Part shown: positions 7,455-34,048 of the stretch, one piece after another
Numbering within the stretch: the first letter of the stretch is position 1
Layout: each line of letters opens with the position of its first letter
Origin: a virus
Taxonomy: Duplodnaviria; Heunggongvirae; Uroviricota; Caudoviricetes
Strand: one strand, 5' to 3'
Virus record (IMG/VR): IMGVR_UViG_2778261256_000005
Coordinates: 1 to 34,588 of that record
Length of the DNA: 34,588 nt
Program-made: the position numbers and the translations under genes
Notes under the pieces: model-generated
The model's input: the letters and a program-made list of their open reading frames with translations, nothing else
Told to the model about the DNA's origin: nothing
Databases searched by the model: none

Positions 7455-7519
7455 TATCCCACCACGCTGTTAAAATTTTGTTTCGTCTTACTTAGCATTT
7501 TTAAGTTGCCCATCGGAAA

Positions 7520-13547: not shown

Positions 13548-13556
13548 AAAATCTCC

Positions 13557-15321: not shown

Positions 15322-15647
15322 AAATCCACCTGATATGAAAGCGTGCCAAAATCGTATGTGCTCGCGGTCACCCACAGCCGTTTCTGGCTTTCTTCACTGA
15401 TTTCCACCGTTCCCGGCACAATGCGCTCATCGTTTTCAACCAGTAATTCCAGTTGTGTAAAAATATCTGCCCTCAGTGTCGGACTGCGTTCCGCAATTAA
15501 TTGCGTGGCTAATCCGCTCTCAATAATGGCGTGAATAATGTCCTGCCCGATACTTTTTCGGTTATTGCATAATTCAGGCTCATTACCGGCATTTAATGAG
15601 AAGTCACCATTCTCAATAAGCAGGTCAATATAAAGAATCTCACTCAC
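15318..15647 (-). CDS. Putative baseplate wedge protein (gpW/gp25-like position), 109 aa
   Basis: Small acidic protein between tape measure and J-like gene; ATGA overlap with tape measure stop. Confidence 0.4.
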   Translation of the reverse strand: MSEILYIDLLIENGDFSLNAGNEPELCNNRKSIGQDIIHAIIESGLATQLIAERSPTLRADIFTQLELLVENDERIVPGTVEISEESQKRLWVTASTYDFGTLSYQVDL

Positions 15648-17611
15648 GCATTAAGCTCCTGCCATTCCATTAGCTGGGAGGGTGAAAGCGCTTCTTTAGT
15701 ATGAAAATGCACTTCACCAATTTTACGGCTGTTATCCGTTACTGATTTAGAATTACTGCTAATTGTTTTACTGATACCACCTTTATCAACGCCTTTTAAT
15801 TCACCGCCAGTTGAAAGGGTATTCGTTGTCAGTGCCGGTTGAGATTCGTTCGCCAGTGAAATATCGACGCCCGGAATTTTATTGAGTTTTCCGACAATCC
15901 AGTTCCACGATTTCAGGAACCCGCCTTTGATGGTCTGCCAGACGTTATCAAACAGGGAAACAATCCCGCTGGCCATGCCGCTTAACGCCTGTGACGGTGA
16001 AAACCCGGTCAGCAGCGCAATAAAGCTGTTCCAGCCGTCCGTGATCCATTGCCACGCAGCGGAAAACACGCCGGCAAGCCATTCCACCACACCAGCCACG
16101 GCGGTAAACGCTGCCGTATTCATCACCGCCGCTTTCACATCATCCCAGTGTTTAATCAGCAGATAACACCCGGCTGCCAGCAGAGCAATCGCCCCGATAA
16201 CCAGCAGAACCGGCCAGCTCATCAGGTTGATGCCAATACCGGCCATAATCGCCGCCATGCGCACGGCCAGCAGCGTACCCCGCAGGAATTTCAGCGTCAG
16301 GTTCCACGCCACAACAGCCTTTGAGGTAATCCAGACAGTGGCCGCGTAAATCTTCGTGACCAGCGTCAGGGCGCTCCAGAGTCCCTTCAGACCCACCAGG
16401 ATAAATTTTGAGACGCCCATGACAATATTTGTCACCGCGCCCGCTGCCGCCACACCAAACAGCGCAAGCTGCACGTAACCAATCACCCGCGCAATATTGG
16501 GAAACATCTGCATCCAGCGTCCGAACGTCTGCCCCATATCGGCCAGGCGGTTCAGGACCGGGTACAAAACCGGGATCAACGTCAGTCCGATCACCGTCTG
16601 AATGGCTTTAAGGATTTGTACAAAGCGATCCCACGGCTTGACCAGCTTCCCGGCCATCTCCTGTGTACGCTTCAGCCCGTCAGAGCCGCCCAGTTCGGTG
16701 ATATTACGCTGCAGTAACGCCACATTGCCGTACAGGTGTTTTATCACCGCTGAACTGTCACCAAATGCCGCATCCAGCTCCGCCTGGGCTTTCAGGTTCC
16801 CTTCCAGGCTTTTGCCGTATTTGCCCTGCAGCTTGATCAGCATTTCAGGCATGGACAGCATTTTGCCGGTGGAGTCCGTGAAGGACAGCCCCAGCTTTTT
16901 AGCTCCCTCCATCGCGCCGGTCATGAAGCCTTCGTAAGCGCTACTGGCTTCTGTTCCCAGCGTACGATTTAGCTGTCCCAGCACCGCCAGCTGTTCATCC
17001 AGCCCGACGCCGTAGTTAGTCCCGACACCTCGCGCCCCTTCCATCAGGTCTTTGATGGTACCCATTTCGGTACCGAAGACCTTGCGCATATACACCATTT
17101 TCCCCGCCAGTTGCTCAGCGAACTGGACTTTACCCAGCCGCGCCGCATCGGCGGAAAAGTTACCGTACATCTGCCCCATGAACTCCGCCGTGTCGGCGGA
17201 TGTGGATTTCAGGGCAAATGCCAGCGTATTAGCGACCTTCGTCACTTTCGGCAGCTCGCTGGCGGTAAGGCCGGCAATGGAAGCGTTAATGTTCTCTGTG
17301 GATTTGACGAACTCCACCGCGCTGGCACCGTAGGTCATGCTGAACCGGAGCGCGTCACGCTGTACTGTCTTTAATGCCTGATTATCAATCCCTTTTGCGG
17401 CGGCATCATTCAGCGCGTCGTACATTTCGATAGCCGGCGATAACGCGCCTTTTATGGCCATCCCCGTACCGGCCAGCCCCAGCACGCCGCCGCCAATCTG
17501 CGAAAAGGCCGCTTTTGATTTTTCCGCAAAGCCGGTGACGCTGCCCTGCGCCTGTTTTAACGGGCGCGTCAGCTTATCAATCAGGCTTAATGTAAAATCT
17601 AACTGTTTCAT
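15644..17611 (-). CDS. Tail tape measure protein
   Basis: 655 aa, Ala/Gly-rich with hydrophobic C-terminal segments; follows frameshifted chaperone gene. Confidence 0.8.
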   Translation of the reverse strand: MKQLDFTLSLIDKLTRPLKQAQGSVTGFAEKSKAAFSQIGGGVLGLAGTGMAIKGALSPAIEMYDALNDAAAKGIDNQALKTVQRDALRFSMTYGASAVEFVKSTENINASIAGLTASELPKVTKVANTLAFALKSTSADTAEFMGQMYGNFSADAARLGKVQFAEQLAGKMVYMRKVFGTEMGTIKDLMEGARGVGTNYGVGLDEQLAVLGQLNRTLGTEASSAYEGFMTGAMEGAKKLGLSFTDSTGKMLSMPEMLIKLQGKYGKSLEGNLKAQAELDAAFGDSSAVIKHLYGNVALLQRNITELGGSDGLKRTQEMAGKLVKPWDRFVQILKAIQTVIGLTLIPVLYPVLNRLADMGQTFGRWMQMFPNIARVIGYVQLALFGVAAAGAVTNIVMGVSKFILVGLKGLWSALTLVTKIYAATVWITSKAVVAWNLTLKFLRGTLLAVRMAAIMAGIGINLMSWPVLLVIGAIALLAAGCYLLIKHWDDVKAAVMNTAAFTAVAGVVEWLAGVFSAAWQWITDGWNSFIALLTGFSPSQALSGMASGIVSLFDNVWQTIKGGFLKSWNWIVGKLNKIPGVDISLANESQPALTTNTLSTGGELKGVDKGGISKTISSNSKSVTDNSRKIGEVHFHTKEALSPSQLMEWQELNA

Positions 17612-17808
17612 TCCGTGCCTTTAAATGCAGTGCTGATTCCGTTAGCAACCGCTATTCGCATATTTTCCCAGTGGCGATTATCCAGCCAGATAGCAGCGGA
17701 AATATCATCCACGGAATCCTGACCGTGTGGTAAATAATGGCGACGCAAAATTAAATACTGTTCGAGTCCGTTCTGTTCAATTGCCCGGACTCGTTTTGTC
17801 AGTTTTTT
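17608..17808 (-). other. Programmed -1 frameshift extension of the tail assembly chaperone (E+E-prime-like)
   Basis: Slippery site A_AAA_AAC (minus strand, 17802-17808) at last two codons; -1 frame is open for 64 codons and ends with TGA overlapping the tape measure ATG (gaATGAaa). Confidence 0.7.
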
Positions 17809-18056
17809 ACTTCAATTTCCAGTTCTGGCGCATAAAGCTCATTCACTTTTCCGGCAAGCTGGAGCGCTGCACCCGGACGTTTCAGAATGTCTTCCAGCGC
17901 TTCTTTACTTTCCGTTGCCACAATGCGTACAAGATAATTGTGCGCGGGTGCCACTTTATTATCCATCGCCATTTCGTTGATGAACTTATTATAAGCGGTC
18001 TGATTCGGTTCAAAGGTAATTTCTTTTTTGCATACAACCAGGTTAATTTTTTCCAT
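17799..18056 (-). CDS. Tail assembly chaperone (gpE-like), 85 aa
   Basis: Small ORF immediately upstream of tape measure ending with slippery heptamer A_AAA_AAC. Confidence 0.7.
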   Translation of the reverse strand: MEKINLVVCKKEITFEPNQTAYNKFINEMAMDNKVAPAHNYLVRIVATESKEALEDILKRPGAALQLAGKVNELYAPELEIEVKN

Positions 18057-18342
18057 AAATAACTTTCTCTCTTAAATTAATTTCATCAACAAGCGCGTTA
18101 TGCCGTGCAGCACACTGCCCGTATAACTCCAGATAAAGTGTCAGTAATTCCGCCGCGTCTTTTCCCTGCGTTCCACTCAGGCGCGGCAGCTGCGTGACGC
18201 ATTTAGTTTTCAGGTTTTCCTGATAACGTACGTTCGGTACTGGTGACGGCGTCGTTGTACATGCGGACAAAGTCATCAGACAGACACTTATTGGTAAATA
18301 CCGGCTTAACCACTTCCGTGCGAATTTCACGCGGTGGCGCAT
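18043..18342 (-). CDS. Outer-membrane spanin (Rz1-like lipoprotein), overlapping i-spanin
   Basis: Signal peptide with lipobox LSAC followed by proline-rich CTTTPSPVPN; overlaps 18203-18342 of i-spanin gene in another frame. Confidence 0.7.
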   Translation of the reverse strand: MRHRVKFARKWLSRYLPISVCLMTLSACTTTPSPVPNVRYQENLKTKCVTQLPRLSGTQGKDAAELLTLYLELYGQCAARHNALVDEINLREKVIYGKN

Positions 18343-18535
18343 TTTTCAGTGCCTCCAGTTTATCTTCCAGCCGGCGACCAGATGAACCGGCAATTTCAGC
18401 CAGTTGTTCCCCGGTCGCGGTGACCGCTTTTGAGACAGTCAGATCAATACTGTCCCGCTGCCAGCCGGCCGTTTTCCAGCCGGCTATAAATGCCAGAGCA
18501 AGGGTGAATAACCAGCCTGACACGACGCGATCCAT
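18203..18535 (-). CDS. Inner-membrane spanin (Rz-like)
   Basis: N-terminal TMD (WLFTLALAFIAGW) followed by charged helical region; TGATG overlap with endolysin. Confidence 0.65.
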   Translation of the reverse strand: MDRVVSGWLFTLALAFIAGWKTAGWQRDSIDLTVSKAVTATGEQLAEIAGSSGRRLEDKLEALKNAPPREIRTEVVKPVFTNKCLSDDFVRMYNDAVTSTERTLSGKPEN

Positions 18536-18876
18536 CAGCGCACCCCGTTATGTTCCAGGCTGAAATGATTACCATCAGGGCGGGATTTGAAGCGACCGCC
18601 CCATGAACCACCCAGCGATTCCCAGTATTCGCCCAGTGGCAGATAATCTTCCGTTCGGGTTTTGTATTCCCCCTTCACGAACAGATTAAAATCCACGGCC
18701 AGACGCTGTGTGTGCAGGCTGTTGGAAATGCCGCTGCCTTTCTTCGCATTCAGTGCAGCCTGTTCCGGAGTGCGGTATGCTTCACCAAACGTCAGCCACA
18801 TACCGTTGGCATTGGCATACTGGATCAACAAAGCAATCATTGACGTAAAACGCTGTTGTTTCTCGCTCAGTGTCAT
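18535..18876 (-). CDS. Endolysin, peptidase M15 family (L-alanyl-D-glutamate peptidase-like)
   Basis: 113 aa with His/Asp zinc-ligand pattern (SLHTQRLAVDF ... DGNHFSLEH). Confidence 0.7.
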   Translation of the reverse strand: MTLSEKQQRFTSMIALLIQYANANGMWLTFGEAYRTPEQAALNAKKGSGISNSLHTQRLAVDFNLFVKGEYKTRTEDYLPLGEYWESLGGSWGGRFKSRPDGNHFSLEHNGVR

Positions 18877-19169
18877 TTCCCTGCCCCTTTATCAAAAATC
18901 CCTGTAAAACCCCGCTTACGCAGCCAGGCTTCCACCGCATTCTGCCCCAGAATACCCAGCGCCGAGCCAAATCCGGCCAGCGCGAGCGGATGAATATCCG
19001 GTACAAAGTACAGCGCCACCCCGGCAATCAGTGACAGCCCGCTGCCCACAATGACACGCCCCGCCACCAGACGAAGGGTGATCGGTTCATCACTGTTGAG
19101 CAATTTACCCAGCGCAATCAGCGCCCCCATGACTGCCAGTGCAATGAACCCCTTTTCGTACTCCTGCAT
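18873..19169 (-). CDS. Putative holin (small 3-TMD membrane protein)
   Basis: 98 aa, three hydrophobic segments, charged C-terminus, directly upstream of endolysin (ATGA overlap). Confidence 0.6.
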   Translation of the reverse strand: MQEYEKGFIALAVMGALIALGKLLNSDEPITLRLVAGRVIVGSGLSLIAGVALYFVPDIHPLALAGFGSALGILGQNAVEAWLRKRGFTGIFDKGAGK

Positions 19170-19181
19170 CCCTGCTGCCTC

Positions 19182-19637
19182 TTATCCAATCAGGTTTTCC
19201 GTGGCTTCCGCTTCCAGATACGGCACACCGTTGATGTTGACGAACTTCGGACTTGTCACGAAGTATTTGATTTTATGCGTGGACACACTGCCACCCTTCG
19301 GATCACCATCCAGAACGCTGTTGAGCTGCAGCTTGTTACCAAAGGTTTCCACCTTCATTTCTTCTCTGCCGGCTTTGGCGTAAAAAAGGAAGTCAACCGG
19401 AGGAATGCCACGCCATGACCCCGCTGAACGGGCTTTGGCTGTCAGAACCTGCAGCACTTTGGAACTGACTTCAATTTCACCCTCGGCAGCAACATCACCG
19501 TCCACATACCCGTCAGGGACACCGCGCGTCTGTGCCGCCGCTCTGTTATCGGTGATATCCAGCGAAATTTTTTCAATGTGGATCAGGTCGCCGTCCAGAT
19601 AGATGTCAAAGGACATCCCTGAAATACGTTTGGTCAT
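19182..19637 (-). CDS. Tail tube protein (gpFII-like position)
   Basis: 151 aa immediately after sheath-like gene; size and position fit P2 FII. Confidence 0.55.
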   Translation of the reverse strand: MTKRISGMSFDIYLDGDLIHIEKISLDITDNRAAAQTRGVPDGYVDGDVAAEGEIEVSSKVLQVLTAKARSAGSWRGIPPVDFLFYAKAGREEMKVETFGNKLQLNSVLDGDPKGGSVSTHKIKYFVTSPKFVNINGVPYLEAEATENLIG

Positions 19638-20761
19638 GCGCTGGCCTCCAGACTTGCATCCAGTAACAGACTGATGGTGATCTGCAGCGGTACTTCATAC
19701 GTACGCACCACAATGTAAATATCCACCGCCTTTTTGTTCTTCCAGACAATGGTCACGTCACCGTCCTGTGGTGGTTTCACCTCGCCCGGAAATGACACGC
19801 CGTTGATGCTGGCCGCAGTGGACATTTCCCGCAACGGACGGGCAAACAGCGTCTGGTGTGCGGCAATACTGCCCGGTGTACTGTTAAGTGAGCGATCGGC
19901 AATCTTACCGATGGCCAGCAGACGAACGCGGCGTGCAGCCTTATCCACAATACGCAGCGTCTCGATGGACTGGTAATCACCGCCCTCAACGTCCAGCGTG
20001 CGCCCGTCAGCCCAGTAAAAGCCGTCATAGTCCGGATACCACATCGGCACGCTGTAGCGCTGTGCTTCCAGCGCCTGAAGGGTCGCCAGTTCCAGCGTTT
20101 CGCCGGCACCATCTTTCGGCAGTTCATCACTGCCCGTACTCAGCAACGCGCCTGTTTTCACCCGTGCCGGACTGTCGGCGATGGTGACCGCACGGTTGCA
20201 GAGACGACCAGCCAGCACGCCCGGTTCATTCCCCCAGAGACGGGGTACCAGCTGTACCGCTTTTTCCGCAATACCTTCCTGAAGGGTGGACAGACGCACC
20301 AGATAATCCGCCTGGGCTTCACCCTGCTGCATCCCCTGAACCGCCAGAATGAACCACACCCAGCGCCCGTATTTAGCAATCAGTTCAGATCGCAGCGTTG
20401 CCGCCTGGTTAATCTGCGCTTTCGCGGCCACATCATCAGACAGCACCACACCTTCCACCGAACAGGAGACCTGTGCGGCCTTAACGGCATCCACCCATGC
20501 CCCCGGCTCGCTGTCTGCGGCCAGCACATGAACAAATCCCCACCAGTTCTGGCCGGCGTTCGCCAGTGCGGCCAGAACATCACTTTTTAACGGGCTGTCA
20601 CCCTCGCCCAGCAGCGCATCAAAATCACTCTGTGCGTTAACTGCCAGCGTCTTACCTACATTTTTGGTTCCCGTGCCGATAAACAGCAGCGTGCGCTCCA
20701 CTTCCGTGGTTTCACCCAGCAGCTGATTTACCTGGTTTACGGTCACAATTGGCCAGGTCAT
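19634..20761 (-). CDS. Tail sheath protein (gpFI-like position)
   Basis: 375 aa; size and position relative to tube/chaperone/tape measure. Confidence 0.55.
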   Translation of the reverse strand: MTWPIVTVNQVNQLLGETTEVERTLLFIGTGTKNVGKTLAVNAQSDFDALLGEGDSPLKSDVLAALANAGQNWWGFVHVLAADSEPGAWVDAVKAAQVSCSVEGVVLSDDVAAKAQINQAATLRSELIAKYGRWVWFILAVQGMQQGEAQADYLVRLSTLQEGIAEKAVQLVPRLWGNEPGVLAGRLCNRAVTIADSPARVKTGALLSTGSDELPKDGAGETLELATLQALEAQRYSVPMWYPDYDGFYWADGRTLDVEGGDYQSIETLRIVDKAARRVRLLAIGKIADRSLNSTPGSIAAHQTLFARPLREMSTAASINGVSFPGEVKPPQDGDVTIVWKNKKAVDIYIVVRTYEVPLQITISLLLDASLEASA

Positions 20762-21462
20762 GCTCTCCCCCTGATATCCTGCGCGTTAACATCCCAGCCG
20801 AACCCGATAGCCTGCAGCTGTCGCGCCAGCGCTTTGTTAAAATCATCCTGACCTATCCCCAGAAACGCCCTGGCAGGTAAATCAATCTGCCAGGACGTTT
20901 TGACCGGTTTGTCCTCCAGTATCCGGATAAGCAAACCTGCCTGTCTGGCGGTCATCCTTTCCTGTATTTCCTTATAACCGGGCTTACGCCAGCGCTTACC
21001 GCGCCTGACTTTATACCCGGCCTTGCGCAGACGTTTCGCCTGTCGCAGTGATGCAGGCTTGTCCCCCTGCTCACGGCCTTCCACCTGCTTACGGTTGACG
21101 GTCACGCTCATGCCGTTCTGCTGGACATACCCCACCACGCCGGCAGGCAGATTTCCCTTCGCATTCCGGTAATGACCGCCGGCCAGATACAGCCTGACCG
21201 ACTCTGTTTCAGGCATTTCCCGGATGCGGATCAGTTTCGGCATATTGCGCAACATTTTGCCTTTACGCCGGGTCTGTCGCGCCTGCCACTTATCACCCTC
21301 CGGCGACTGCTGATTGCGCACATTACGCTTTGCTGCAGCTTCCACGCCGTATTTCGCCATACGCCACAACAGCCGGTGACGTTTCGCAGAAGGTAAATCC
21401 AGTTTTTTCAGCGCCTCCTGGAGCTGGCGGAACTGTTCCTTGTTCAGCTCGCCATTTATCAT
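20758..21462 (-). CDS. Phage virion morphogenesis / tail completion protein (gpS-like)
   Basis: Basic 234-aa protein in S-like position; assignment by synteny. Confidence 0.45.
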   Translation of the reverse strand: MINGELNKEQFRQLQEALKKLDLPSAKRHRLLWRMAKYGVEAAAKRNVRNQQSPEGDKWQARQTRRKGKMLRNMPKLIRIREMPETESVRLYLAGGHYRNAKGNLPAGVVGYVQQNGMSVTVNRKQVEGREQGDKPASLRQAKRLRKAGYKVRRGKRWRKPGYKEIQERMTARQAGLLIRILEDKPVKTSWQIDLPARAFLGIGQDDFNKALARQLQAIGFGWDVNAQDIRGRA

Positions 21463-23400: not shown

Positions 23401-24429
23401 TTACTCGCCTGCCGGAGGCGCGACAGGTGCCCCGATAGCTACCGCACTTTCATCAAACGCGGCGTACAGTTCCGGATACTCAACCGCATAACCTTCGTTA
23501 CGCAGGTATTTGTTTTCGTACTGTTTACGGTCTTCCACAAACTCCGCTTTACGCTGACGCGTGCCGCGCTGGGTGTAGATGTGCAGGTTTGGCAGTGTCG
23601 TAACAATCATGCGTTTGCCTGGCATAAACGGCGGTACGTAAGCCGTGCGGCCGGCGATGCTGTCAGACAGCAGTTGCGCGGCGATCTTCTCCGTGGGTTT
23701 GTCTGCTTTCTGATACAGACGGAACGACTCCGCCGCGACCAGATCAGCGCCGACAAGAACCACCAGGCGTGGATCATTACGGTACTGTGCCGGGATTTTG
23801 GCGTTGATAAGGTCGGAGGCCATTGCATCCAGCGACACGTAATCGCCTTTCCCGTCACCGTCAAGCACCACCGCATCAGTGATGATCTGCTGGCCGTCCT
23901 TCCACTCTTTGACGATCTGATGCCAGCCCTTGTTCACATCCTCGCCGTTCGGGTTGGTTTCCGCGTTCGTGGTCTCGGCCACTTTGGTACCGTTAAAGCC
24001 GATACGCAGCATATCCAGCGCAAACGCCTGATTGGTGAACTCCTGAACACGCTGGAAAAACTCGTTTTCATCGCCGGCGTTCGCCCAGACAGAAAGCAAC
24101 TGCCAGGTGAGTGCGGCGCATGAGTCGGTCTCGACCAGACTGTAATCATTACCACTCACGCCCACTTTCTTACGGAAGCGGCCATCCAGTACACGCCCGG
24201 TATACAGGCCAGAGCTGCCAACCGGAACCACCTGCCCCTGCAGCTGATCGACATCGGCAACGGTGATCAGATTCAGGAAATCAGACTGCTCCATCAGCGC
24301 ATTGCGCAGCTGGGTTTCTTTGGGGTCGGTGAGTGCAAACCAGCGTTCGCTGTCGGTCGCCCCGTAGGATTCACGCAGCCCGGTGTGATACTGAAGCAGA
24401 AACTCACGGGCTTTCGCATTTAATTGCAT
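23401..24429 (-). CDS. Major capsid protein, P2 gpN family
   Basis: 342 aa; position between scaffold and small terminase; size close to P2 N. Confidence 0.8.
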   Translation of the reverse strand: MQLNAKAREFLLQYHTGLRESYGATDSERWFALTDPKETQLRNALMEQSDFLNLITVADVDQLQGQVVPVGSSGLYTGRVLDGRFRKKVGVSGNDYSLVETDSCAALTWQLLSVWANAGDENEFFQRVQEFTNQAFALDMLRIGFNGTKVAETTNAETNPNGEDVNKGWHQIVKEWKDGQQIITDAVVLDGDGKGDYVSLDAMASDLINAKIPAQYRNDPRLVVLVGADLVAAESFRLYQKADKPTEKIAAQLLSDSIAGRTAYVPPFMPGKRMIVTTLPNLHIYTQRGTRQRKAEFVEDRKQYENKYLRNEGYAVEYPELYAAFDESAVAIGAPVAPPAGE

Positions 24430-24463
24430 ATTCTTTTTCCTTAAAGAAAAGTAGTGTTATCCC

Positions 24464-25303
24464 TTACAGGAAATTGAAGCCTTTTTTGCCCTTGCTGAAT
24501 TTCTTGTCCGGCAGTTGAGTAACTTTGTTATTCAGCTTGCTGAAGTTTTTCACCAGCTCCGGCAGGTTCCCCACCAGACGCGCAAAATCTTCGGTGTCCA
24601 CTACTTCCTTCACGGTGTCCACATCGTCCTGCACATCAGATACCGCTTCTTCCGCCTCACCCAGACGGGTTTCAATAGCAGATACGCGCTTATCAATGGC
24701 ATCCAGCGCTTCAGCCAGCGCCTGTAAGGCATCAGACTGTGAAGGTTCCTGCTCCGGGGTCTGCTCCGGTTCTTCGATACTGAAAAAATGGCGCCAGCCC
24801 TTTTTCGCTGTCTTTGACATTCCCTTTTCCTTTTTAAATTCCCTGACTTCATCAAACGCCAGCGGCTTGTATGGTCCGATGCGTTTTCCCCTGGTGCGGC
24901 TGAAACGTAACCGTGTGGTGCTTACCCCGGCCGGACTGTCAGTAATGGCCAGTCCCTCAAGATAGGTTTTCCCGGTATTTCTGAAATTGCCGTCCGGTGT
25001 AAACTCCGGTGATAAAAATAAAAGCTGACCGTCTGCATTTGCCTGTAGCAATGAAATCGCCGGACAGAGGCGGGCATATAAACGAAGAATACCTTCATCA
25101 TCCCGCTCGGCTTTTACTTCCAGCACCTCCCCCATATTCCCGAAATTACGGGAATGTTCCGGCCATAACAGCGCGGTATACAAAGAGGGGTCATATAATT
25201 CAGCGGCATCAAGCAACCATTGTTCTTCAATAAATCGCTTATCAACCGTTTCACCCGCAGTGGCGATACAAATCCAGTTTGTTGCCAGTTGTGAACCTGA
25301 CAT
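24464..25303 (-). CDS. Capsid scaffolding protein, gpO family
   Basis: ATG 25303 preceded by GGAGG; acidic coiled-coil C-terminus; divergent from terminase as in P2. Confidence 0.8.
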   Translation of the reverse strand: MSGSQLATNWICIATAGETVDKRFIEEQWLLDAAELYDPSLYTALLWPEHSRNFGNMGEVLEVKAERDDEGILRLYARLCPAISLLQANADGQLLFLSPEFTPDGNFRNTGKTYLEGLAITDSPAGVSTTRLRFSRTRGKRIGPYKPLAFDEVREFKKEKGMSKTAKKGWRHFFSIEEPEQTPEQEPSQSDALQALAEALDAIDKRVSAIETRLGEAEEAVSDVQDDVDTVKEVVDTEDFARLVGNLPELVKNFSKLNNKVTQLPDKKFSKGKKGFNFL

Positions 25304-25446
25304 ATTGCCTCCGTTCATGCTGCGGTTTTCAGTATCGCCAATAAAATTAACCGCCGCATTCACTTCATTTCGGATATAGGCTATTAGCCGAACACATCAG
25401 AAATAAAGCGGGATTTAATATACAAACGCCCGTGCATAATGTGTGC

Positions 25447-27228
25447 ATGGCTAAATATTCAGAAGAATTAAAAGGCGTTGCGCGGGCGCTTTATTTAAAA
25501 CGCTATACCCCGCAGGAAATTGCCAGCGAACTTAATCTGCCTAACAGACGCATTGTCTATTACTGGGCGGAGAAATATTGCTGGGCGGAATTACTCAGTC
25601 ATGAATCCACCGAAGATGCATTAAACCGTCGCATTCAGTCACTGACATTACGTGAAGGGAAATCGGAGCTGGAGCTGCGGGAGCTGGACAGTCTCGTTTC
25701 TCACCTGGTGAAACTACGTGCACAGCACAATAAGCATCAGGAAAAGCTGGCAGAAATTAAACACAGTGAAAATGATGCGCCGGCGCGTCAGTCCGGTGGC
25801 GACGAAAAGCCCCGGAAACGTGGCAAGTACAAAAAGAACGACATCAGCGGACTGACACAGGAAGATTTTGACCGGTTCGCGCTGGAGCACCTTTTCGGTT
25901 ACCAGAAACACCTTCGCGCTAATCTTCATCAGCAAATCAGGAACATCCTGAAAAGCCGCCAGATTGGTGCAACCTGGTATTTCTCAATAGAAGCCTTTGA
26001 GAATGCGGTCATGACAGGCGATCCGCAAATCTTCCTGTCCGCATCAAAGGCTCAGGCGGAAGTATTCCGCAGCTATATCGTCAACATTGCGGAGCAGTAT
26101 TTCGGCGTGGAGCTGACGGGAAACCCCATCCGCCTCTCCAACGGCGCGGAGATGCGATTCCTGTCCACCAACAAGAACACCGCCCAGTCATACAGCGGCC
26201 ATCTGTACTGCGATGAATATTTCTGGGTACCCAACTTTGCAAAATTAAACGAAGTGGCCAGCGCGATGGCCACACACGACAAATGGCGAACCACCTACTT
26301 TTCCACCCCCAGCAGCAAAACGCACCAGGCGTACCCGTTCTGGACTGGTGAAGAATGGAAGCGCGGTGACAAAAAACGCGCGCGCGTACAATTTCCCACG
26401 GAGAAGGAGCTGCGCGACGGTGGACGGTTATGTCCTGATGGGCAGTGGCGCTACATCATCACAATGGAAGACGCGATCGCAGGCGGGTTTAATCTCGCCA
26501 GCATCGGGAAGCTGCGCAACCGCTACAACCGCGACACTTTCAACATGCTGTATATGTGCGTGTTCGTGGACAGCAAGGACAGCGTATTTTCGTTCTCTCA
26601 CGTAGAACGCTGCTGTGTAGATCCGGATATCTGGGAGGATCATGACGAAAACCTGCCCCGGCCGTTCGGCAACCGTGAAGTGTGGGCGGGTTATGACCCG
26701 GCTCGCAGCGGAGACACCTCCACCTTCGTGATCATCGCGCCGCCGATAGTGGCCGGCGAAAAATTTCGGGTACTGCGTGTATTCCACTGGCAGGGGATGA
26801 ACTGGAAGTGGCAGGCGGCACAGATTAAGAAGCTGTTTGGCCAGTACAACATGACCTACATCGGCATTGATATCACTGGACTGGGTAGCGGTGTCTTTGA
26901 AGACGTTCAGCACTTTGCCATGCGTCAGGCAGTGGCGATCCGCTACGGCGTCGAGACCAAAAATCGTCTGGTGATGAAGATGATCGACGTTATCGAAGAC
27001 GGCCGCGTGGAATGGGATAAGGAGAAGACCGAAATCGCCGCCAGCTTTATGACCATCCGCCGTACGTCCACGGCCAGCGGCAACGCAATGACTTTCGTCG
27101 CCGATCGCACAGCAGAAACAGGACACGCAGACAGTTTCTGGGCTATCGCCCATGCCATTGACAACGAGCCATTAAACTTTGAAAACCAGCGAAAATCACG
27201 CTGGGGTAACTTAGGGAAAGCAGCATGA
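25447..27228 (+). CDS. Terminase large (ATPase) subunit, gpP-like
   Basis: ~593 aa; first ATG 25447 (track ORF starts at GTG 25432); followed by overlapping portal gene. Confidence 0.8.
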   Translation: MAKYSEELKGVARALYLKRYTPQEIASELNLPNRRIVYYWAEKYCWAELLSHESTEDALNRRIQSLTLREGKSELELRELDSLVSHLVKLRAQHNKHQEKLAEIKHSENDAPARQSGGDEKPRKRGKYKKNDISGLTQEDFDRFALEHLFGYQKHLRANLHQQIRNILKSRQIGATWYFSIEAFENAVMTGDPQIFLSASKAQAEVFRSYIVNIAEQYFGVELTGNPIRLSNGAEMRFLSTNKNTAQSYSGHLYCDEYFWVPNFAKLNEVASAMATHDKWRTTYFSTPSSKTHQAYPFWTGEEWKRGDKKRARVQFPTEKELRDGGRLCPDGQWRYIITMEDAIAGGFNLASIGKLRNRYNRDTFNMLYMCVFVDSKDSVFSFSHVERCCVDPDIWEDHDENLPRPFGNREVWAGYDPARSGDTSTFVIIAPPIVAGEKFRVLRVFHWQGMNWKWQAAQIKKLFGQYNMTYIGIDITGLGSGVFEDVQHFAMRQAVAIRYGVETKNRLVMKMIDVIEDGRVEWDKEKTEIAASFMTIRRTSTASGNAMTFVADRTAETGHADSFWAIAHAIDNEPLNFENQRKSRWGNLGKAA

Positions 27229-28244
27229 AAAAACGGAAATACAGGGAACGCCGCACCGCCAGCAAGCCGCGCCATATGAGCCTTATTACCCTGGGTAAAC
27301 CGGAACCCATTCTGACGACCGGCACAAACTACACAGACGTCTGGTATGACAATGAAGCGGAACACTGGACGCTCCCGATTGACCGGCTGGCGCTGGCGCA
27401 ACTGGTGAACCTGAACGCGCAGCACGGCGGTGTGCTGTATGCCCGTCGCAATATGGTGACGGCAAACTATAAAGACGGCGGACTGACGCATGAACAGCTT
27501 GGTGCAGCCGTGTTCGACTGGCTGACCTTCGGTGATGTGGCCATTCTGAAAGTGCGTAACGGCTGGGGGGATGTGGTGGCACTGTACCCGCTGCCGGCAC
27601 TCTATACCCGCCAGCGTAAGACCGGGGAGTTTGTGGTACTGCAGCAGGGTGAACCGATGATTTATCCGCCTGAAGATATTATTTTTCTCAGGCAGTACGA
27701 TCCGCAACAGGCGATTTATGGTCTGCCGGATTATATCAGCGGTATCCATTCTGCCCTGCTTAACGGTGAGGCAACAATTTTTCGTCGGCGTTACTACCAT
27801 AACGGCGGACACACAGGTGGCATGATCTACTGTAACGACCCAAATATGACTGATGAAGTGGAAGAAGAAATTATTCAGAAGCTGGAGCAGTCAAAGGGGA
27901 TCGGGAACTTCAGCACCATGTTTGTGAACATCCCCAAAGGCGATCCGGACGGCATCAAATTTATCCCGATTGGGGATATCAGCGCCAAAGATGAGTTTCA
28001 GAACATCAAGAGCATCAGCGCCCAGGACGTACTGACCGCGCATCGATTCCCGGCAGGACTGGCGGGGATTATCCCGACGAACGGCGCAGTAATGGGAGAT
28101 GTTGAGAAAGCGTCCAAAACCTACCGCAAAGCAGAAATTTTGCCCATTCAGCGCATGTTTACCGCCGCAGTGGAACAGGAAAGTGATGTACCGCCCCACC
28201 TGTACCTTAATTTCCTGAAAGACAGTGAGCTGGAAGGTGATTAA
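27225..28244 (+). CDS. Portal protein, gpQ-like
   Basis: 339 aa; ATGA overlap with terminase stop; size close to P2 Q. Confidence 0.8.
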   Translation: MKKRKYRERRTASKPRHMSLITLGKPEPILTTGTNYTDVWYDNEAEHWTLPIDRLALAQLVNLNAQHGGVLYARRNMVTANYKDGGLTHEQLGAAVFDWLTFGDVAILKVRNGWGDVVALYPLPALYTRQRKTGEFVVLQQGEPMIYPPEDIIFLRQYDPQQAIYGLPDYISGIHSALLNGEATIFRRRYYHNGGHTGGMIYCNDPNMTDEVEEEIIQKLEQSKGIGNFSTMFVNIPKGDPDGIKFIPIGDISAKDEFQNIKSISAQDVLTAHRFPAGLAGIIPTNGAVMGDVEKASKTYRKAEILPIQRMFTAAVEQESDVPPHLYLNFLKDSELEGD

Positions 28245-28712: not shown

Positions 28713-29432
28713 ATGTTAATAGTCTCAGTTCTTAAATGTAGTAAAGAGTTTACCCCTAAACACGCCCAATGGCTTCATCGTCAGTTCAAAGATATTCCAT
28801 CTATATGTTTAACCGATGCAGATAATATTCCTGGAGTTAACACAACCCCTTTGCTTTATAACTGGCCGGGATGGTGGTCTAAAATTGAACTATTTAATCC
28901 TAATCACCCAGTCCTTGGAGACCAAGATTTACTCTATTTTGACGTAGATGTTGTGGTCACGGGAGATATTCATATTTTCGAAGGTGCGAAGAAATTTACA
29001 ATGCTTCGGGAGTTTAACCATGCCTCAAGAGTAAACTCATCAATAATGATGATTCCGGCGTCGATTAAAAAGACGATTTGGGAACAATTCATTATTGATC
29101 CTGAGAAAATTATGCGCAATTGTCAGACTGAAGACAAATGGGGTGATCAGGGATTTCTCGGTAGCATCATAAAACCAGCCCTATGGCAGGATATCATTCC
29201 TGGCTCAATTGTTAGTTATAAATGTGACATCGCCACCCCCTCGATGATTGGCTTCAATGCAAATTTAGCCTCTGAGGCTGCGACAGGGAAAGTCCCTGAT
29301 AATGTGGCGGTTGTTTGCTTTCATGGCAGTCCACGCCCCTGGCGTACTGGTTTTGATTGGGTTCCTTCGTTTTCCCTGCGGGATACTCTGTACGGTAAAT
29401 TAAAGAACTTTAAAATAAGAATGAAGCAATAA
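28713..29432 (+). CDS. GT8-family (GT-A fold, retaining) glycosyltransferase-like protein, 239 aa
   Basis: AT-rich ORF with strong SD (GGGAGG); motifs LLYFDVDVVV (DxD), WGDQGFL and VVCFHGSPRPW align with LgtC/WaaJ-type GT8 motifs (YLDIDVLV, QDQDILN, HYCGPAKPW); no signal peptide or TMD. Confidence 0.6.
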   Translation: MLIVSVLKCSKEFTPKHAQWLHRQFKDIPSICLTDADNIPGVNTTPLLYNWPGWWSKIELFNPNHPVLGDQDLLYFDVDVVVTGDIHIFEGAKKFTMLREFNHASRVNSSIMMIPASIKKTIWEQFIIDPEKIMRNCQTEDKWGDQGFLGSIIKPALWQDIIPGSIVSYKCDIATPSMIGFNANLASEAATGKVPDNVAVVCFHGSPRPWRTGFDWVPSFSLRDTLYGKLKNFKIRMKQ

Positions 29433-29500
29433 AGATAACGCCCCTATTGCTTCAATGTTCGCTCCTTCCCCTAACAATAAAGTTAGGCACTAGTGAACCG

Positions 29501-32158
29501 TTACTTTTCCCGGCCAAATATCCAGCAGCGGAATGTTTCCGGCATCCGTTGCATATCCCCTTTACCACGATTATGGCGCTCACTTACCGCGCTGCGCGTG
29601 GTGCTTTGTCTGATAAACCGGCGCTCATTGCCGTTTTTAAGCAGCTTTTTAATTTCCGTTAACGTGAACGGAATACGCTGCCGGTGTGCTGCGGCGACCT
29701 CTTCCATGTGATTGAAATTAACCGCGATTTCATTTTCATCTGATGAATGATTGATGCCATAAGGTGCCAGTTCATCCAAGTAATCAAACAGCTCCCAGAA
29801 CTCCTGCACCAGAGGATGATCCTTTTTAAGTGCCTGACAACGTTCAACGGCCAGCGCGGTGATGGCTTCACGCGTTTTTTCTATACGTTCAACCGGCACC
29901 GGTACAACAAGTGCAAGCGCCTCCAGCAAGCCCACAAGCTGCGCGTGATTCTTTGCAATACGGATATGGCGAATACTGCTATTAGACTCCAGCTCATTCC
30001 TAGCTCGCTCGTACCCCCTGCCGAACGTCTGCATGATTTCTTTTTCGCGCATGGTGGCCAGTAATGTGAATCCGGATACCTGGCTAACGGGGAGTTGTTC
30101 AAGTCGTTCTGCAGCGTGGCGCGTCTGAATGGACTGGCCGCGCTTGTCGGTATAGATGTGGATGATACGCTCCAGAAACGCCTTGCTGCCGTCTGTGTCG
30201 GCATTTTGCGCTATCACAATACTTCCCCTGAACGGCGGCTCATACGTCTCGTTATTGTTCGATTTGATACCCACGGCGCGGGAGGCACGACCGTTATACA
30301 GTGATTTCAGCTCGTCCCAGTCAAAAGCGCGTTGCTTGGCGTTATCGGTAGTACGGTCGCCCTCAATCAGCACAACCGGCAGATTACCGACCTGGGCGAA
30401 GTTACGGCCACGCGCGGCGGCGGTAGATTTAGATGGGTCAAACCCTTCGTATTCCTCACGGCCGGCGAGCTTCCAGAGAAATTCTATCAGCGTGGATTTA
30501 CCTGTCCCCGGCTCGCCCACGATTTCCAGAAACGGAAATGACTTGTCACGCTCGCGGATTTGTTCGGCAAACAGCGACCCCAGCCAGAACGCCAGCGCCA
30601 CATACCCTTTTTCACCAAATGCCGTCCAGATATCGTCTACCCAACCCGTAGTAAACTCGTTCAGCTTCGGATTCAGATCCAGCGCCGGCGTGAGGCTCAG
30701 GCTCTTAACGCTGGCACTGTTGATTTCGAAGTAATCCTCGTCGTTCATCTCATACAGCCGGCCATCGCAAACGGCCACGCGGTTAAACAACCAGGCGGCA
30801 TAATCCTTGTTATAGCCGATGAAATTCTGCGTCTTTACCTCTTTGATTTCAGGGAGGCGCATCTGGATGAACTTATCCAGCTGTTTGGTGCTGCCTGTGT
30901 ACACCGCCCCTTTGGCGATGTGCAGCAGACGCTTTTTGAACTCGGCGGAGCTGGTGAGCTGATTAGCCGTGAAAGTATCTTTCACGGCTGGCCGGTTAGG
31001 CATACTGACTTTCACGTAATACCAGGACTCGTCCGTAGGTTCAGACCGCTGAAAGTAAAGCGGCGTCAGCCAGCAGTTAGCTATTTCGGTCACGCCGCCT
31101 GACTCTTTAACCGCCCGTTCTTTGGCCTCCCACTCCATCACCACTTCGGTACCGGTATTGGTGATGCGCTCATAGGCTCGCATATACCTGTCCAGATCCA
31201 GCTCAAACCAGTACATGCGGGAGTTATGCTCAAAGTAGAACGAGTGCCACTCGTTATGCTGATGCATGAGCAGCGCTTTCTCAGTCGGGCTTTTTGCCAG
31301 AAGGAGATCGCCATAGTAGCGATAATTTTTAATGTCCGACTTACTGAACCGGTTACGTAACAACAGGTCATTCCAGTCCAGCGATGCCGATGATTTCACC
31401 GGCTGCGCGGCACGAGTTTTCCATCCTGCAGCATCACTACGGGCAGCGAACGCCAGTGTGTGCTTTGTGCCGGCTTTATCGCCGTCAAACGCCCATACAA
31501 GACGTGGACGTGGTTTTTCACCCAGTTCTTTGGCCAGCGTATCCAGTGCGGCCAGCGGATAGTTGTTACTGCTCAGTGTGGCAACTGCAGGTAACCCTGC
31601 CTGGCACAGACTCAGCGCGTTGAAGATTCCCTCAGTGATCCAGATTTCGTTCACTTCCTGCAGGTTGATAAAGGGAGGAACCCACCAGTGACCGACATAG
31701 CTTCCCCTGATGTTGGCTTTCTGCTTACCGAAGCGCTGCGGCTGGTCAATGATGCGCTCCCATGTTGCACCGCATGACAGCGAAAATCTGACCGTTGCCG
31801 ACCCCATGCCATCTTTCACGAATGCACCCTGGGTAAAACAGCCTTTTAATGGCTCAGTCTCCAGCCCTCTGGCCTCGCGCAGATACGCCTCAGCTACTGC
31901 ATGGGGGTTATCTTCTGTGGTCTGGTAACGTTTTGACCAGTCTTCAAAGATATCCGGATACAGCTCTTTCACGACAATCTGATGTGCGCAGTTATTTTCA
32001 CGGCCACATTTCAGAATCCAGGGCTTTTCTATGCTGGTAAATAATTCGCGCTTACGACAGGCAGGGCAAACGCCCTGCTGCAAATACTTATCCCGCTCTT
32101 TAAATTCAAAGTCCCGAACAAGACGGCGCACAACGTCCTGTTGTATCGTTTCGTTCAT
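29501..32158 (-). CDS. Replicative primase-helicase (N-terminal zinc finger, TOPRIM primase, D5-like P-loop NTPase)
   Basis: 885 aa; CPACx15CGRENNCAH zinc-binding pattern, acidic TOPRIM-like segment (WITEG ... DGDKAG), Walker A VGEPGTGKST. Confidence 0.8.
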   Translation of the reverse strand: MNETIQQDVVRRLVRDFEFKERDKYLQQGVCPACRKRELFTSIEKPWILKCGRENNCAHQIVVKELYPDIFEDWSKRYQTTEDNPHAVAEAYLREARGLETEPLKGCFTQGAFVKDGMGSATVRFSLSCGATWERIIDQPQRFGKQKANIRGSYVGHWWVPPFINLQEVNEIWITEGIFNALSLCQAGLPAVATLSSNNYPLAALDTLAKELGEKPRPRLVWAFDGDKAGTKHTLAFAARSDAAGWKTRAAQPVKSSASLDWNDLLLRNRFSKSDIKNYRYYGDLLLAKSPTEKALLMHQHNEWHSFYFEHNSRMYWFELDLDRYMRAYERITNTGTEVVMEWEAKERAVKESGGVTEIANCWLTPLYFQRSEPTDESWYYVKVSMPNRPAVKDTFTANQLTSSAEFKKRLLHIAKGAVYTGSTKQLDKFIQMRLPEIKEVKTQNFIGYNKDYAAWLFNRVAVCDGRLYEMNDEDYFEINSASVKSLSLTPALDLNPKLNEFTTGWVDDIWTAFGEKGYVALAFWLGSLFAEQIRERDKSFPFLEIVGEPGTGKSTLIEFLWKLAGREEYEGFDPSKSTAAARGRNFAQVGNLPVVLIEGDRTTDNAKQRAFDWDELKSLYNGRASRAVGIKSNNNETYEPPFRGSIVIAQNADTDGSKAFLERIIHIYTDKRGQSIQTRHAAERLEQLPVSQVSGFTLLATMREKEIMQTFGRGYERARNELESNSSIRHIRIAKNHAQLVGLLEALALVVPVPVERIEKTREAITALAVERCQALKKDHPLVQEFWELFDYLDELAPYGINHSSDENEIAVNFNHMEEVAAAHRQRIPFTLTEIKKLLKNGNERRFIRQSTTRSAVSERHNRGKGDMQRMPETFRCWIFGREK

Positions 32159-32417
32159 AAATAATCCAGATGTGAATAATGGGTAAAAGGCAAAAACTAT
32201 ATTCTGTACTGCTTGTTATATCGCTCATGTGTCATTAGTTCCCAGCTTCTGCCCTTATCCTTACTCAGTAATCGTCAGCGATAAGAAACATGAACAGAGA
32301 AATAATGTTTTGGCTTAATAACCTGATATACCTTTTTGCCGTTGTAATATTCTGTCAGCACTGAAAATGCCTTGTGAATGACACTTTCACTTGCATGAGA
32401 GGTCACTGTAAGCATCG

Positions 32418-32987
32418 TTATTTCACACTGGCTATTTTTACAAGATACATCCAGACATAAGAAACAACTTTAGCCTGATGAATGGCATCATATAAAGCGT
32501 GATGTTTAACACCATCAAACTTAATAATATTACGAACATTCAGCCCAAGTGTTTTTGACAGTTCAACAACCGTTCTTACATCACGGTCATTCCAGTAGTA
32601 CCAAAGTGGATCGGCAAACCCGCATTTCTCTGATGCATTACGTAAAATAACATTGTCGAACGCTGCACTATTCCCCCATACCTGTACTTTAGATGGGTCA
32701 GAATGCTCAGTAATAAAAGCTTCCAGATTAGCTAACGTCAGAGGCAAGTCCAGACAATCGTCATTAAGCAGCTCGCTACGCGCTTCGGCATCCTGACGCA
32801 TCCACCATAATACGGTTTCTGACCCCATAGTGAGACCGTGGCCTACACAGCTGCCCAGGCTGACACGTTGATAAAACTGTTCACCCATTTCGCCAGTTTC
32901 AGGGTCAAAGAATACAGCACCGATAGAAGCAATCGCAGAAGTCGGTTTATTATCCATTGTTTCAAGATCAATCATTAAATGTTTCAT
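32418..32987 (-). CDS. DnaQ-like 3-prime-5-prime exonuclease (DEDDh family)
   Basis: 189 aa, N-terminal MIDLETM Exo I motif, downstream H..D motif; AAGGA SD. Confidence 0.65.
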   Translation of the reverse strand: MKHLMIDLETMDNKPTSAIASIGAVFFDPETGEMGEQFYQRVSLGSCVGHGLTMGSETVLWWMRQDAEARSELLNDDCLDLPLTLANLEAFITEHSDPSKVQVWGNSAAFDNVILRNASEKCGFADPLWYYWNDRDVRTVVELSKTLGLNVRNIIKFDGVKHHALYDAIHQAKVVSYVWMYLVKIASVK

Positions 32988-32996
32988 ATCGGTTCC

Positions 32997-33332
32997 TTAA
33001 CGTTGGGAAGCTGCAACAGATTTAAGATGCGAGTTATTACTTTTTAACGCTGTGGTAGCCAGCGACATAAGACCGGAAATGTTATTTTCAGTTGGTATAT
33101 TTCCGCCAAATACCATAAGCGTGATTTTGTGCAGTTCTTCAAAATCATCACTATCATTATTAAAGCGAGCAGTGGAGGTTATACCCTCAAGGCATTTTGC
33201 AAGCTGAATGTTTAATTCCATTAACTGCAAGCCATCGCTATGTACAGAGAATGTTTCTTTATCAATGGTTTTTGCCTGAGCGTGATAGTTTTGCAACAGA
33301 CTACGAATCAGCGTGGCATATTTAGTCTTCAT
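32997..33332 (-). CDS. Hypothetical early-operon protein (111 aa from ATG 33332)
   Basis: Track ORF start 33344 is a TTG; ATG 33332 has GGGGA SD. Confidence 0.4.
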   Translation of the reverse strand: MKTKYATLIRSLLQNYHAQAKTIDKETFSVHSDGLQLMELNIQLAKCLEGITSTARFNNDSDDFEELHKITLMVFGGNIPTENNISGLMSLATTALKSNNSHLKSVAASQR

Positions 33333-33358
33333 GATAATCCCCAATAATATTTAGTTTA

Positions 33359-33640
33359 CTAACGAGCACTTTTATCTTTCGTGAATAAACGGTTCTTCCA
33401 GTCATGCCATTCAGGCGGGGCAATTTGAGCCAAATGAATGGCATAAGCATCCCATTCCCCCCGATGGATATAGATTTCTCCACCTTTTTTTGATGGATTT
33501 AGAGGGTCTTTCATGCGGATTACCGGCAGTTTTCCAGCCGTGGCCATTTTGCGAATTGCAGCAGGCGTTTTGCCTATATATTCGGCAAAAAGCTCAGGGG
33601 TCACCAACTCTGAAAGCGCCTTTTCTGCTGGTTCCTTCAT
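33359..33640 (-). CDS. Cox-like excisionase/early-operon regulator
   Basis: 93 aa first gene of leftward early operon divergent from C repressor; HTH-like region ending GKLPVIRM; size matches P2 Cox (91 aa). Confidence 0.55.
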   Translation of the reverse strand: MKEPAEKALSELVTPELFAEYIGKTPAAIRKMATAGKLPVIRMKDPLNPSKKGGEIYIHRGEWDAYAIHLAQIAPPEWHDWKNRLFTKDKSAR

Positions 33641-33659
33641 CTGTGGTATCCTTCGTTAG

Positions 33660-33748
33660 TTTGGGTTCCTAGGGCGCTTTAAGTCGTTCTAGGGTTCTTT
33701 TGTCAAGGTTCTTTTGTAAGAACCAATAATAGTTGCGATACAAGAACC
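33660..33748. promoter_or_regulatory. Immunity switch region with repeated GGTTCTT half-sites (putative C/Cox operators and divergent promoters)
   Basis: GGTTC(T/C)T in direct orientation at 33664, 33693, 33707 and inverted (aagaacc) at 33719 and 33742; TTGTCA -35-like at 33700. Confidence 0.45.
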
Positions 33749-34048
33749 ATGCCAAGAAATTATGCGGAGAAACTCCGGCAGATCCGGAAAGCTGAAGGGT
33801 TAACTCAAAAAGATTTTTCAGAGCTTACTGGGGTAGCTCTTGGAACAATAAAAAAGTACGAAACTGGCCATCAGCCAGCTCGTGCAGAAGTCTTAGAAAG
33901 TGTTATAGAGGTACATATGTTTGAAAAATATACACTCTGGTTAATGACAGATAAGACGGCACCAATTGCGGGGCAGGTGTCCCCGTCTCTCTCCCCTGAT
34001 GGGCAAGACAACATAACATCATCCCGTTCCACCCGGAAAATTGGCTAA
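33749..34048 (+). CDS. Immunity repressor, P2 C-like
   Basis: 99 aa (same length as P2 C); HTH plus KYTLWLMTDKTAPIAGQVSP resembling remembered P2 C KYTLWFMTNQIAPESGQIAP. Confidence 0.75.
   Translation: MPRNYAEKLRQIRKAEGLTQKDFSELTGVALGTIKKYETGHQPARAEVLESVIEVHMFEKYTLWLMTDKTAPIAGQVSPSLSPDGQDNITSSRSTRKIG

Follow-up and report, generated by a model that had tools for sequence, protein, structure and literature searches.

How does a P2-like prophage initiate DNA replication when the P2 replication genes A and B are missing from it? The question is raised by a caudoviricete genome of 34,588 nucleotides, IMG/VR record IMGVR_UViG_2778261256_000005 (positions 1 to 34,588; hereafter the window). Searches with tblastn found matches in it to P2 Q, P, O, N, M, L, Y, G, int, C and cox, and no match to P2 A, 186 A or P2 B anywhere in the window at E<=0.01. 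A first-pass annotation had described a gene of the early operon as a primase-helicase standing in place of a P2-type A protein, and these searches bear out the absence of A and extend it to B. The explanation that best fits the data, to which we assign a probability of roughly 70%, is that the initiator is one multifunctional primase-helicase that replaces both A and B of P2 and acts at a repeat module located at 7509-7799.

A primase-helicase in the place of P2 A and B

The gene in question encodes a protein of 885 amino acids (aa), with the following features.

29501 to 32158, minus strand: 885-aa primase-helicase of the phiCTX orf37 / PHROG 1139 family (from Pfam, PHROG, alignment and AlphaFold model)
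31988 to 32068, minus strand: zinc ribbon, CPxC (residues 31-34) ... CGRENxC (51-57), all four cysteines invariant
31355 to 31645, minus strand: TOPRIM catalytic core of a DnaG-type primase domain, residues 172-268, with E176, D225/D227 and D261
30149 to 30643, minus strand: P-loop AAA+/SF3-like ATPase core, residues ~506-670, with Walker A (548-556), Walker B (595-602), motif C (647-653) and R664
29504 to 29836, minus strand: C-terminal winged-helix domain, residues 775-885, the presumed origin-recognition domain

Pfam identified Toprim_3 at residues 172-268 (E 6e-11) and Toprim_2 (E 4.5e-10), and the PHROG 1139 profile, 'DNA primase', matched the protein from end to end (residues 3-884, 1241 bits). 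Membership of this family is also apparent by tblastn, which aligned the protein with phiCTX orf37 at 40.7% identity over its entire length and at 95% with gp29 of Escherichia phage ESSI2_ev239 (Peduoviridae, genus Evevirus; hereafter ev239), the nearest isolated phage. We aligned 35 homologues, down to 49% identity, to assess residue conservation. The zinc-ribbon cysteines C31, C34, C51 and C57 are invariant in this alignment, as are the TOPRIM acidic residues E176, D225 and D261, residues G548, G553, K554 and T556 of the Walker A motif (GEPGTGKST), E599 and D601 of Walker B, Q651 and N652 of motif C, and R664.

A sequence search of the PDB returned nothing significant for this protein (best E 0.34), and structures were therefore compared instead. 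An AlphaFold model built on the 35-homologue alignment (mean predicted local distance difference test score, pLDDT, of 87) matched DnaG and T7 primase domains as well as SF3/MCM-like helicases, in agreement with Foldseek. The whole model matched structures that include a zinc-binding domain, namely the zinc-binding and RNA-polymerase domains of Aquifex DnaG (2au3) and a T7 primase fragment (1nui). In its helicase half an N-terminal domain is followed by an AAA+/SF3-like ATPase and then by a winged helix at the C-terminus. Taken with the motifs, these structural matches show that a DnaG-type primase (zinc ribbon and TOPRIM) is joined in this protein to an initiator helicase of the Cch/Rep kind that ends in a winged helix.

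The zinc finger, TOPRIM and Walker A motif that had been read from the sequence at first pass are thus confirmed by the alignment, TOPRIM by Pfam as well, and the primase and helicase folds by the model. No A-type HUH match was found by Pfam among the nine proteins of the region that were scanned. The domains that had been expected were recovered in part, in that Toprim and the P-loop motifs were found, the latter with a sub-threshold family match described below, and D5_N was not.

A repeat module that accompanies the primase-helicase

The first-pass annotation had tied the initiator to repeats at 7520-7790. They belong to a slightly larger structure.

7509 to 7799, no strand assigned: origin-like module of 12 iterons in both orientations, with inverted ends and an A+T-rich stretch

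The iterons are copies of TGTGAYG (one reads CGTGATG). The inverted ends consist of CATCGGAAAA, then CGTCACA, then CATCAC, and the stretch at 7716-7770 is 85% A+T. The module lies in the 1 kb of intergenic DNA that separates an acyltransferase moron from the tail genes; it is the sole array of its kind in the 34.6-kb window and is conserved at the same place in ev239.

Comparison with related genomes revealed a shared architecture of 280-320 bp overall, in which inverted ends, each composed of a G-rich element, TCGGAAA (or TGGGAAA / CGGGAAA) and two iterons 9-10 bp apart, enclose inner iterons. This architecture was found in the phages ev239, phiCTX, Smp131, RSY1, Dobby, phi3, Halomonas phage 4908 and PfPro, and in five prophage loci (L009, L020, L041, L043 and L044) from Providencia, Microbulbifer, Comamonas, and metagenome-assembled genomes (MAGs) of a Caulobacteraceae and a Desulfovibrionaceae bacterium. 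Nine of ten complete phage genomes with the primase-helicase carry it, against none of seven with an A-type gene (P2, 186, Yen56.17, Kp ST16, ev129, PHL101 and FUB5b). It was also absent from P4 and from 3.3 Mb of shuffled sequence. In phiCTX the module coincides with the GenBank features 'region3, R3 repeats' and with annotated integration host factor (IHF) sites.

These counts depend on the detectors used. Strict versions (exact 7-mers, inverted-repeat identity >=22/30, tandem matches >=6/7) missed the window itself and L041, and thresholds were relaxed; a position weight matrix trained on TCGGAAA-type arms misses the Pseudomonas variants, which were found by k-mer counting. As a control, the k-mer detector recovered the experimentally mapped ori and crr of P4.

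The iterons differ by lineage (CGTCACA, CGTTACA, GGTAACA, GGTAAT, CCTAACC, CCCGACC, CCGGAACA and CTGACA), and most look like variants of a common sGTnAC-type core. The flanking TCGGAAA-like element varies little among the enterobacterial and TCGGAAA-type lineages, and variants of it occur in others. No relation between iteron sequence and residues of the C-terminal domain (CTD) could be read across nine lineages, a small sample in which the wing is too variable.

In the converse test, 2.9 million viral contigs were searched using nothing but the arm motif. This returned 91 stretches, 30 of which encode a member of the primase family within the fetched DNA and none an A protein. Among the 45 stretches of at least 9 kb, 38 carry P2-type Q, P, N, ogr or int genes. 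The suspected link between the initiator and the repeats therefore gains comparative support, since the module tracks the primase family across genomes. From the sequence we infer that 7509-7799 is the cognate origin of the primase-helicase. We also lean, if only slightly, towards a broader reading in which the ~290-bp module would be a hitherto undescribed origin shared by every phiCTX-type member of the Peduoviridae with a primase-helicase, in hosts ranging from E. coli to Desulfovibrionaceae, the iterons of each lineage being read by the variable winged-helix CTD and the invariant flank by a conserved part of the protein or a host factor.

Two related repeat clusters were noted in passing. 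The Providencia rustigianii locus (L009) has two complete modules in tandem (12996-13290 and 13390-13673) right after the primase gene, with a further arm-like copy near 12850; this arrangement recalls the need of P4 for two cis regions, ori and crr. In ev239, six copies of GTCCACA form a second repeat cluster just past the integrase gene (26661-27040). These are probably Int arm-type sites at attP, and the equivalent region lies beyond the end of the window.

A model for initiation

After derepression, the Cox-led early operon would yield the primase-helicase, and its winged-helix domain would bind the TGTGAYG iterons. The module, flanked by the acyltransferase gene and cos, is ~5.4 kb upstream of the primase gene on the excised circle. 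Hexamers would self-load on either side of the A+T-rich stretch and melt it; the helicase would then unwind the DNA, the fused primase would lay primers, and host DNA polymerase III would elongate bidirectionally. The expected outcome is origin-dependent theta-type replication without a site-specific nick, and the monomeric circles so produced would be well suited to packaging from cos in the P2 manner, as in P4. Since monomeric circles are the substrate of P2-type terminase, and P4 DNA replicates in theta mode, a theta-type initiator is compatible with this virion module.

Alternatives to an initiator and its origin

Several observations weigh against this model. The module went undetected in ZY1, and about 35 of 42 genome loci showed none in the 10 kb to either side of the primase; it may lie beyond that flank, as in the integrated map of the window, or have diverged. 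The only Pfam match to the ATPase core, DUF5906 (a P-loop family; residues 546-654, 22.8 bits, E 1.5e-4), falls below its cut-off of 27.6. The theta mode is drawn by analogy. Our literature search, which did not extend to the original phiCTX papers, found annotation-level mentions of the primase only, no origin assignment, and no biochemical or genetic data on any family member. To these are added the proximity of the module to cos in some phages and the variability of one catalytic residue, each of which bears on a specific alternative.

The first alternative holds that 7509-7799 is an accessory packaging or recombination site, used by the terminase small subunit, IHF or Int/Cox, and that the origin is elsewhere, for example in or near the primase gene. 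The position of cos is central here.

8251 to 8268, no strand assigned: probable cos cleavage region, ~450 bp from the module, with an 11-nt inverted repeat at 8240-8250 / 8269-8279

We placed cos there because the records of ev239 (29123-29203) and ev129 (~30790-30927) end at this position in adapter-like sequence, CTGTCTCTTATACACATCT..., which marks DNA ends. We take this sequence to be the Nextera adapter, an apparent contamination of both public records. In the ev239 record the initial 116 nt fail to align with the window, perhaps because of misassembly.

In the window, as in phiCTX, RSY1 and Smp131, attP and cos flank the module and the distance to cos is 0.15-0.5 kb (PMC5694545); a packaging or IHF-related role is therefore possible in these four phages. 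The IHF sites that GenBank annotates inside the phiCTX repeat region, and the many matches in viral contigs that fall just past the portal gene, would also fit such a role. However, the position of the module follows the replication gene and not cos. In the Providencia (L009) and Comamonas (L043) loci, P2-type cos sequences (GGCGAGGCGGGG...GCGCGC) are 2.4 kb and 4.1 kb from the module, respectively, whereas the module is only 0.4 kb and 1.3 kb past the primase stop codon. In phi3 and the Microbulbifer prophage it begins at most ~80 bp past that codon, and in L041, as in L009, L043 and phi3, it abuts the primase gene, kilobases from P2-type cos sequences. Moreover, P2 and 186 have homologous terminase genes and no module, conservation between the window and ev239 is poor from the module to cos, and the window contains no other iteron array.

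The most telling evidence separating the module from packaging comes from ev129. This phage shares a common virion gene set with window positions 8380-28486 (84% nucleotide identity across 13 kb of tail genes and 65-69% across the head genes) as well as the DNA-end junction ...ACCGCAGGCG | GTAGCGCCGTTTT, but its replication gene is of A type and the DNA from its acetyltransferase gene to cos contains no iteron module. Because of ev129, and of the loci in which module and cos are kilobases apart, we judge it unlikely that the array is an accessory site of cos or of recombination. The ev129 genome also carries dcm and dam methylases and a CII/CI switch.

A second alternative takes the protein as initiator and helicase only, its TOPRIM domain weak or repurposed and priming left to host DnaG. 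The second aspartate of the TOPRIM DxD motif, D227 in the window protein, varies among homologues (DGD, DNG, DTG, DDG), which makes primase activity uncertain for some family members. The Pfam Toprim scores are modest, and NCBIfam dnaG (TIGR01391) reaches 20.5 bits against a cut-off of 283.6. The window protein nevertheless has what defines a DnaG-type primase, a zinc-binding domain and a TOPRIM RNA-polymerase domain with catalytic E and DxD, and we regard this alternative as improbable.

Finally, P4-like satellites carry primase-helicases and hotspots for inserted genes are known in P2-like prophages (PMC9122126), but the notion of the replication module as a foreign cassette, of satellite-like or defence type, that the prophage carries in place of a replication system of its own is scarcely credible, since the primase-helicase gene sits in the Cox-led early operon in the slot of P2 A, no other replication initiator is found in the window, no capsid-size or other satellite genes adjoin it, and it is the sole recognisable replication gene in every complete phage genome of the family examined. 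Initiation by the primase-helicase at 7509-7799 thus remains the reading that we prefer.

The exonuclease is an independent cassette

The replication swap had been thought at first pass to include a neighbouring 'DnaQ-like' exonuclease.

32418 to 32987, minus strand: DEDDh 3'-5' exonuclease, Rv2179c-like, 189 aa (PF16473, E 1e-67)

The PF16473 match scores 227.6 bits against a cut-off of 27, the DEDDh catalytic residues are D7, E9, D111, H162 and D167, and the closest solved chain is 8ken/8kel, 'Exodeoxyribonuclease' (E 1.7e-9). RNase_T (PF00929, DnaQ/epsilon) scores 17.2 bits, under its cut-off of 24; the kinship with DnaQ therefore holds at the level of fold and superfamily and fails at that of family.

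The place of this gene in the swap did not hold up. No homologue was found within 10 kb of the primase in 42 other genomes. Relative to ev239 the gene has been exchanged: the two exonucleases (24075-24632 in ev239) share 47.6% aa identity, the adjoining primases share 95%, and nucleotide homology, which is 87.7% across the primase gene and the start of the exonuclease gene, breaks within or beside the latter (query position 2972). A homologue is also present in the early operon of a Klebsiella phage of A type (4286-4852 of L152). For these reasons we rejected the exonuclease as part of the swap and consider it an independently exchangeable accessory cassette. An exonuclease-like open reading frame (ORF) in the early operon of 186 (24890-25474) shows marginal similarity (E 0.022), and ev129 has an exonuclease-like gene at 24964-25668 of its A-type early operon. 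Genes of this kind seem to be common accessories of the early operon, irrespective of the type of initiator. Possible roles are primer or 3'-end processing, or counter-defence.

Early operon and prophage setting

The early operon has the order cox, 111-115-aa ORF, exonuclease, 46-aa ORF, primase-helicase, all on the minus strand, and its ORFs lie exactly where the first-pass annotation had put them, at 29501-33344 downstream of a Cox-like gene. Its remaining features are as follows.

33726 to 33755, minus strand: promoter-like site TTGGCA-18-TATTAT (10/12) upstream of cox, a consensus match only
33359 to 33640, minus strand: Cox-family excisionase/repressor, first gene of the operon (Pfam Phage_Cox, E 7.7e-25; 37.5% identical to P2 Cox)
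32997 to 33344, minus strand: 111-115-aa protein, PHROG 7058 (115 aa as an ORF; RefSeq start at 33332)
32275 to 32415, minus strand: 46-aa ORF, PHROG 1525 (E 2.5e-12), conserved, in the gap between exonuclease and primase
29422 to 29454, minus strand: terminator-like hairpin, 14-bp stem and T run, ~50 bp past the primase stop codon, a pattern match only

The site at 33726-33755 may be the early promoter of the cox-to-primase operon; promoter-like sites of this kind were not enriched over shuffled sequence. Judged by sequence pattern, the Cox-led operon may extend from this site (33755-33726) to the hairpin (29454-29422). The PHROG 7058 family comprises only 43 protein clusters, of which the named ones are all enterobacterial and none is annotated. 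The 46-aa ORF is unannotated both in the RefSeq record examined and in ev239. Some RefSeq genomes place a 'ParE family toxin-like protein' somewhere under 29501-33700.

A prophage of E. coli STK78-E is 100% identical to the window, and the region discussed here occurs at >=99% identity in 19 of 5426 complete E. coli genomes. The prophage site is flanked by raiA and pheL/pheA. No tblastn match was found in the window to P2 FI, FII, E, T, U, D, V, W, J, I or H, and its tail module is therefore of a non-P2 type. This module, at 9600-21400, includes genes that RefSeq names DUF2586 and DUF2590 family proteins and a baseplate J/gp47 family protein, and the same tail type is present in Pseudomonas phi3 and PfPro. 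Two moron-like genes of low GC content (38-46%) were also seen on the plus strand: an acyltransferase gene (6240-7427), between the prophage end and the origin-like module, and a gene matching PHROG 1962 'glycosyltransferase' (28713-29432), between ogr and the primase gene. Both are likely surface-modification (serotype-conversion) genes.

Distribution and significance

The PHROG 1139-type primase-helicase occurs in 40 phage records, versus 385 with an A-type protein, and its homologues, which form at least 2188 protein clusters, come from Gamma-, Beta-, Alpha- and Deltaproteobacteria and have database names such as 'toprim domain-containing protein' and 'bifunctional DNA primase/helicase'. 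A 'DNA primase-like protein' is listed for Smp131 (PMC3931495). In the deposited Smp131 sequence this gene (25406-28085) seems to have a frameshift or a truncation towards its 3' end; its tblastn match is split in two, and the C-terminus as annotated fails to align with the family.

The replication swap is not new, being a long-annotated alternative module of phiCTX-like Peduoviridae, and for this reason its novelty is low. The basic picture is unchanged: initiator and phage are both of known kinds. What is added here is the placement of the helicase near Cch and SaPI Rep, the removal of the exonuclease from the module, and a comparative case for a conserved origin family. The swap illustrates that P2-like phages freely exchange whole replication systems while virion and cos are kept, with ev129 and ev239 as a natural matched pair. 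The comparison also provides a testable origin prediction for a family of at least 2188 protein clusters, found in ~10% of P2-like phage records. If the prediction is true, the 885-aa protein and 290 bp of DNA would constitute a portable, self-loading minimal replicon for many Proteobacteria, and a Gram-negative counterpart to the Rep/Cch systems of Staphylococcus aureus pathogenicity islands (SaPIs) for studying how initiator helicases load themselves.

Comparison with known initiator systems

The closest relatives of the window protein are the phiCTX orf37-type proteins of P2-like phages (RSY1 ORF47, Smp131 orf39, Dobby gp41, phi3 gp05 and ev239 gp29), all full-length homologues; those other than ev239 gp29 are 29-47% identical to it over ~100% of the length. 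As in that family, it is encoded in the early region of a P2-like genome without an A protein, and nothing essential differs. The window has TGTGAYG as its iteron and another neighbouring exonuclease cassette, and its module is set apart from the primase gene by int, attP and a moron.

The A and B genes of P2 and 186 occupy the same genomic slot, late in the Cox-led early operon. Their A protein is an HUH rolling-circle nickase with its ori inside the A gene, and the window protein has no homology to it. Nicking and rolling-circle replication by A would be replaced by origin melting and priming. In comparison with bacterial DnaG, which ends in a DnaB-binding domain, the window protein has a helicase at the corresponding place.

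DnaG-type primases fused to SF3 helicases of the D5 and DUF927 groups have already been noted in phages (PMC4889955, a survey of dsDNA viruses). Among such initiators, the alpha protein of P4 likewise combines a zinc ribbon, a TOPRIM primase, a P-loop helicase and C-terminal origin binding of winged-helix type (PMC4889955), and the P4 origin likewise uses short repeats in both orientations, kilobases away from the alpha gene (ori, and crr with type I repeats). The two proteins are not of one family, however. Pfam finds Zn_Ribbon_Prim (E 1.9e-18), Toprim_3, D5_N, DUF5906 and Pox_D5 in P4 alpha; the window protein gave no match to Zn_Ribbon_Prim (PF08273) at E<=0.01, having a different invariant four-cysteine ribbon, and none to D5_N (PF08706) or Pox_D5 (PF03288). 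Profile comparison by hhalign aligned the TOPRIM stretch alone, with a probability of 43%, and membership of the P4 alpha/D5 family was therefore rejected. The 'P4-type initiator' of the first-pass annotation is thus apt for the functional layout but not for the family, and the two proteins probably work alike.

The best structural matches of the window protein, over ~420-440 residues, are Rep/PriRep of SaPIs and Cch of the staphylococcal cassette chromosome mec (SCCmec), which are also the best matches to the C-terminal winged helix when it is modelled separately. The layout of these proteins (N-terminal domain, AAA+/SF3-like ATPase and CTD with a C-terminal winged helix) is present in the model of the window protein. 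The kinship does not extend to sequence, where we found no significant PDB match, no common Pfam family and, within the structural alignments, 11-17% identity. A fusion of primase and Rep is likewise found in SaPI5. SaPI origins contain 6-12 iterons and an A+T-rich centre, with at least two opposed iterons per side, and are bound by the winged helix of Rep (PMC9371898). The module at 7509-7799 follows the same logic, with iterons on either side of an A+T-rich centre and the terminal iterons opposed.

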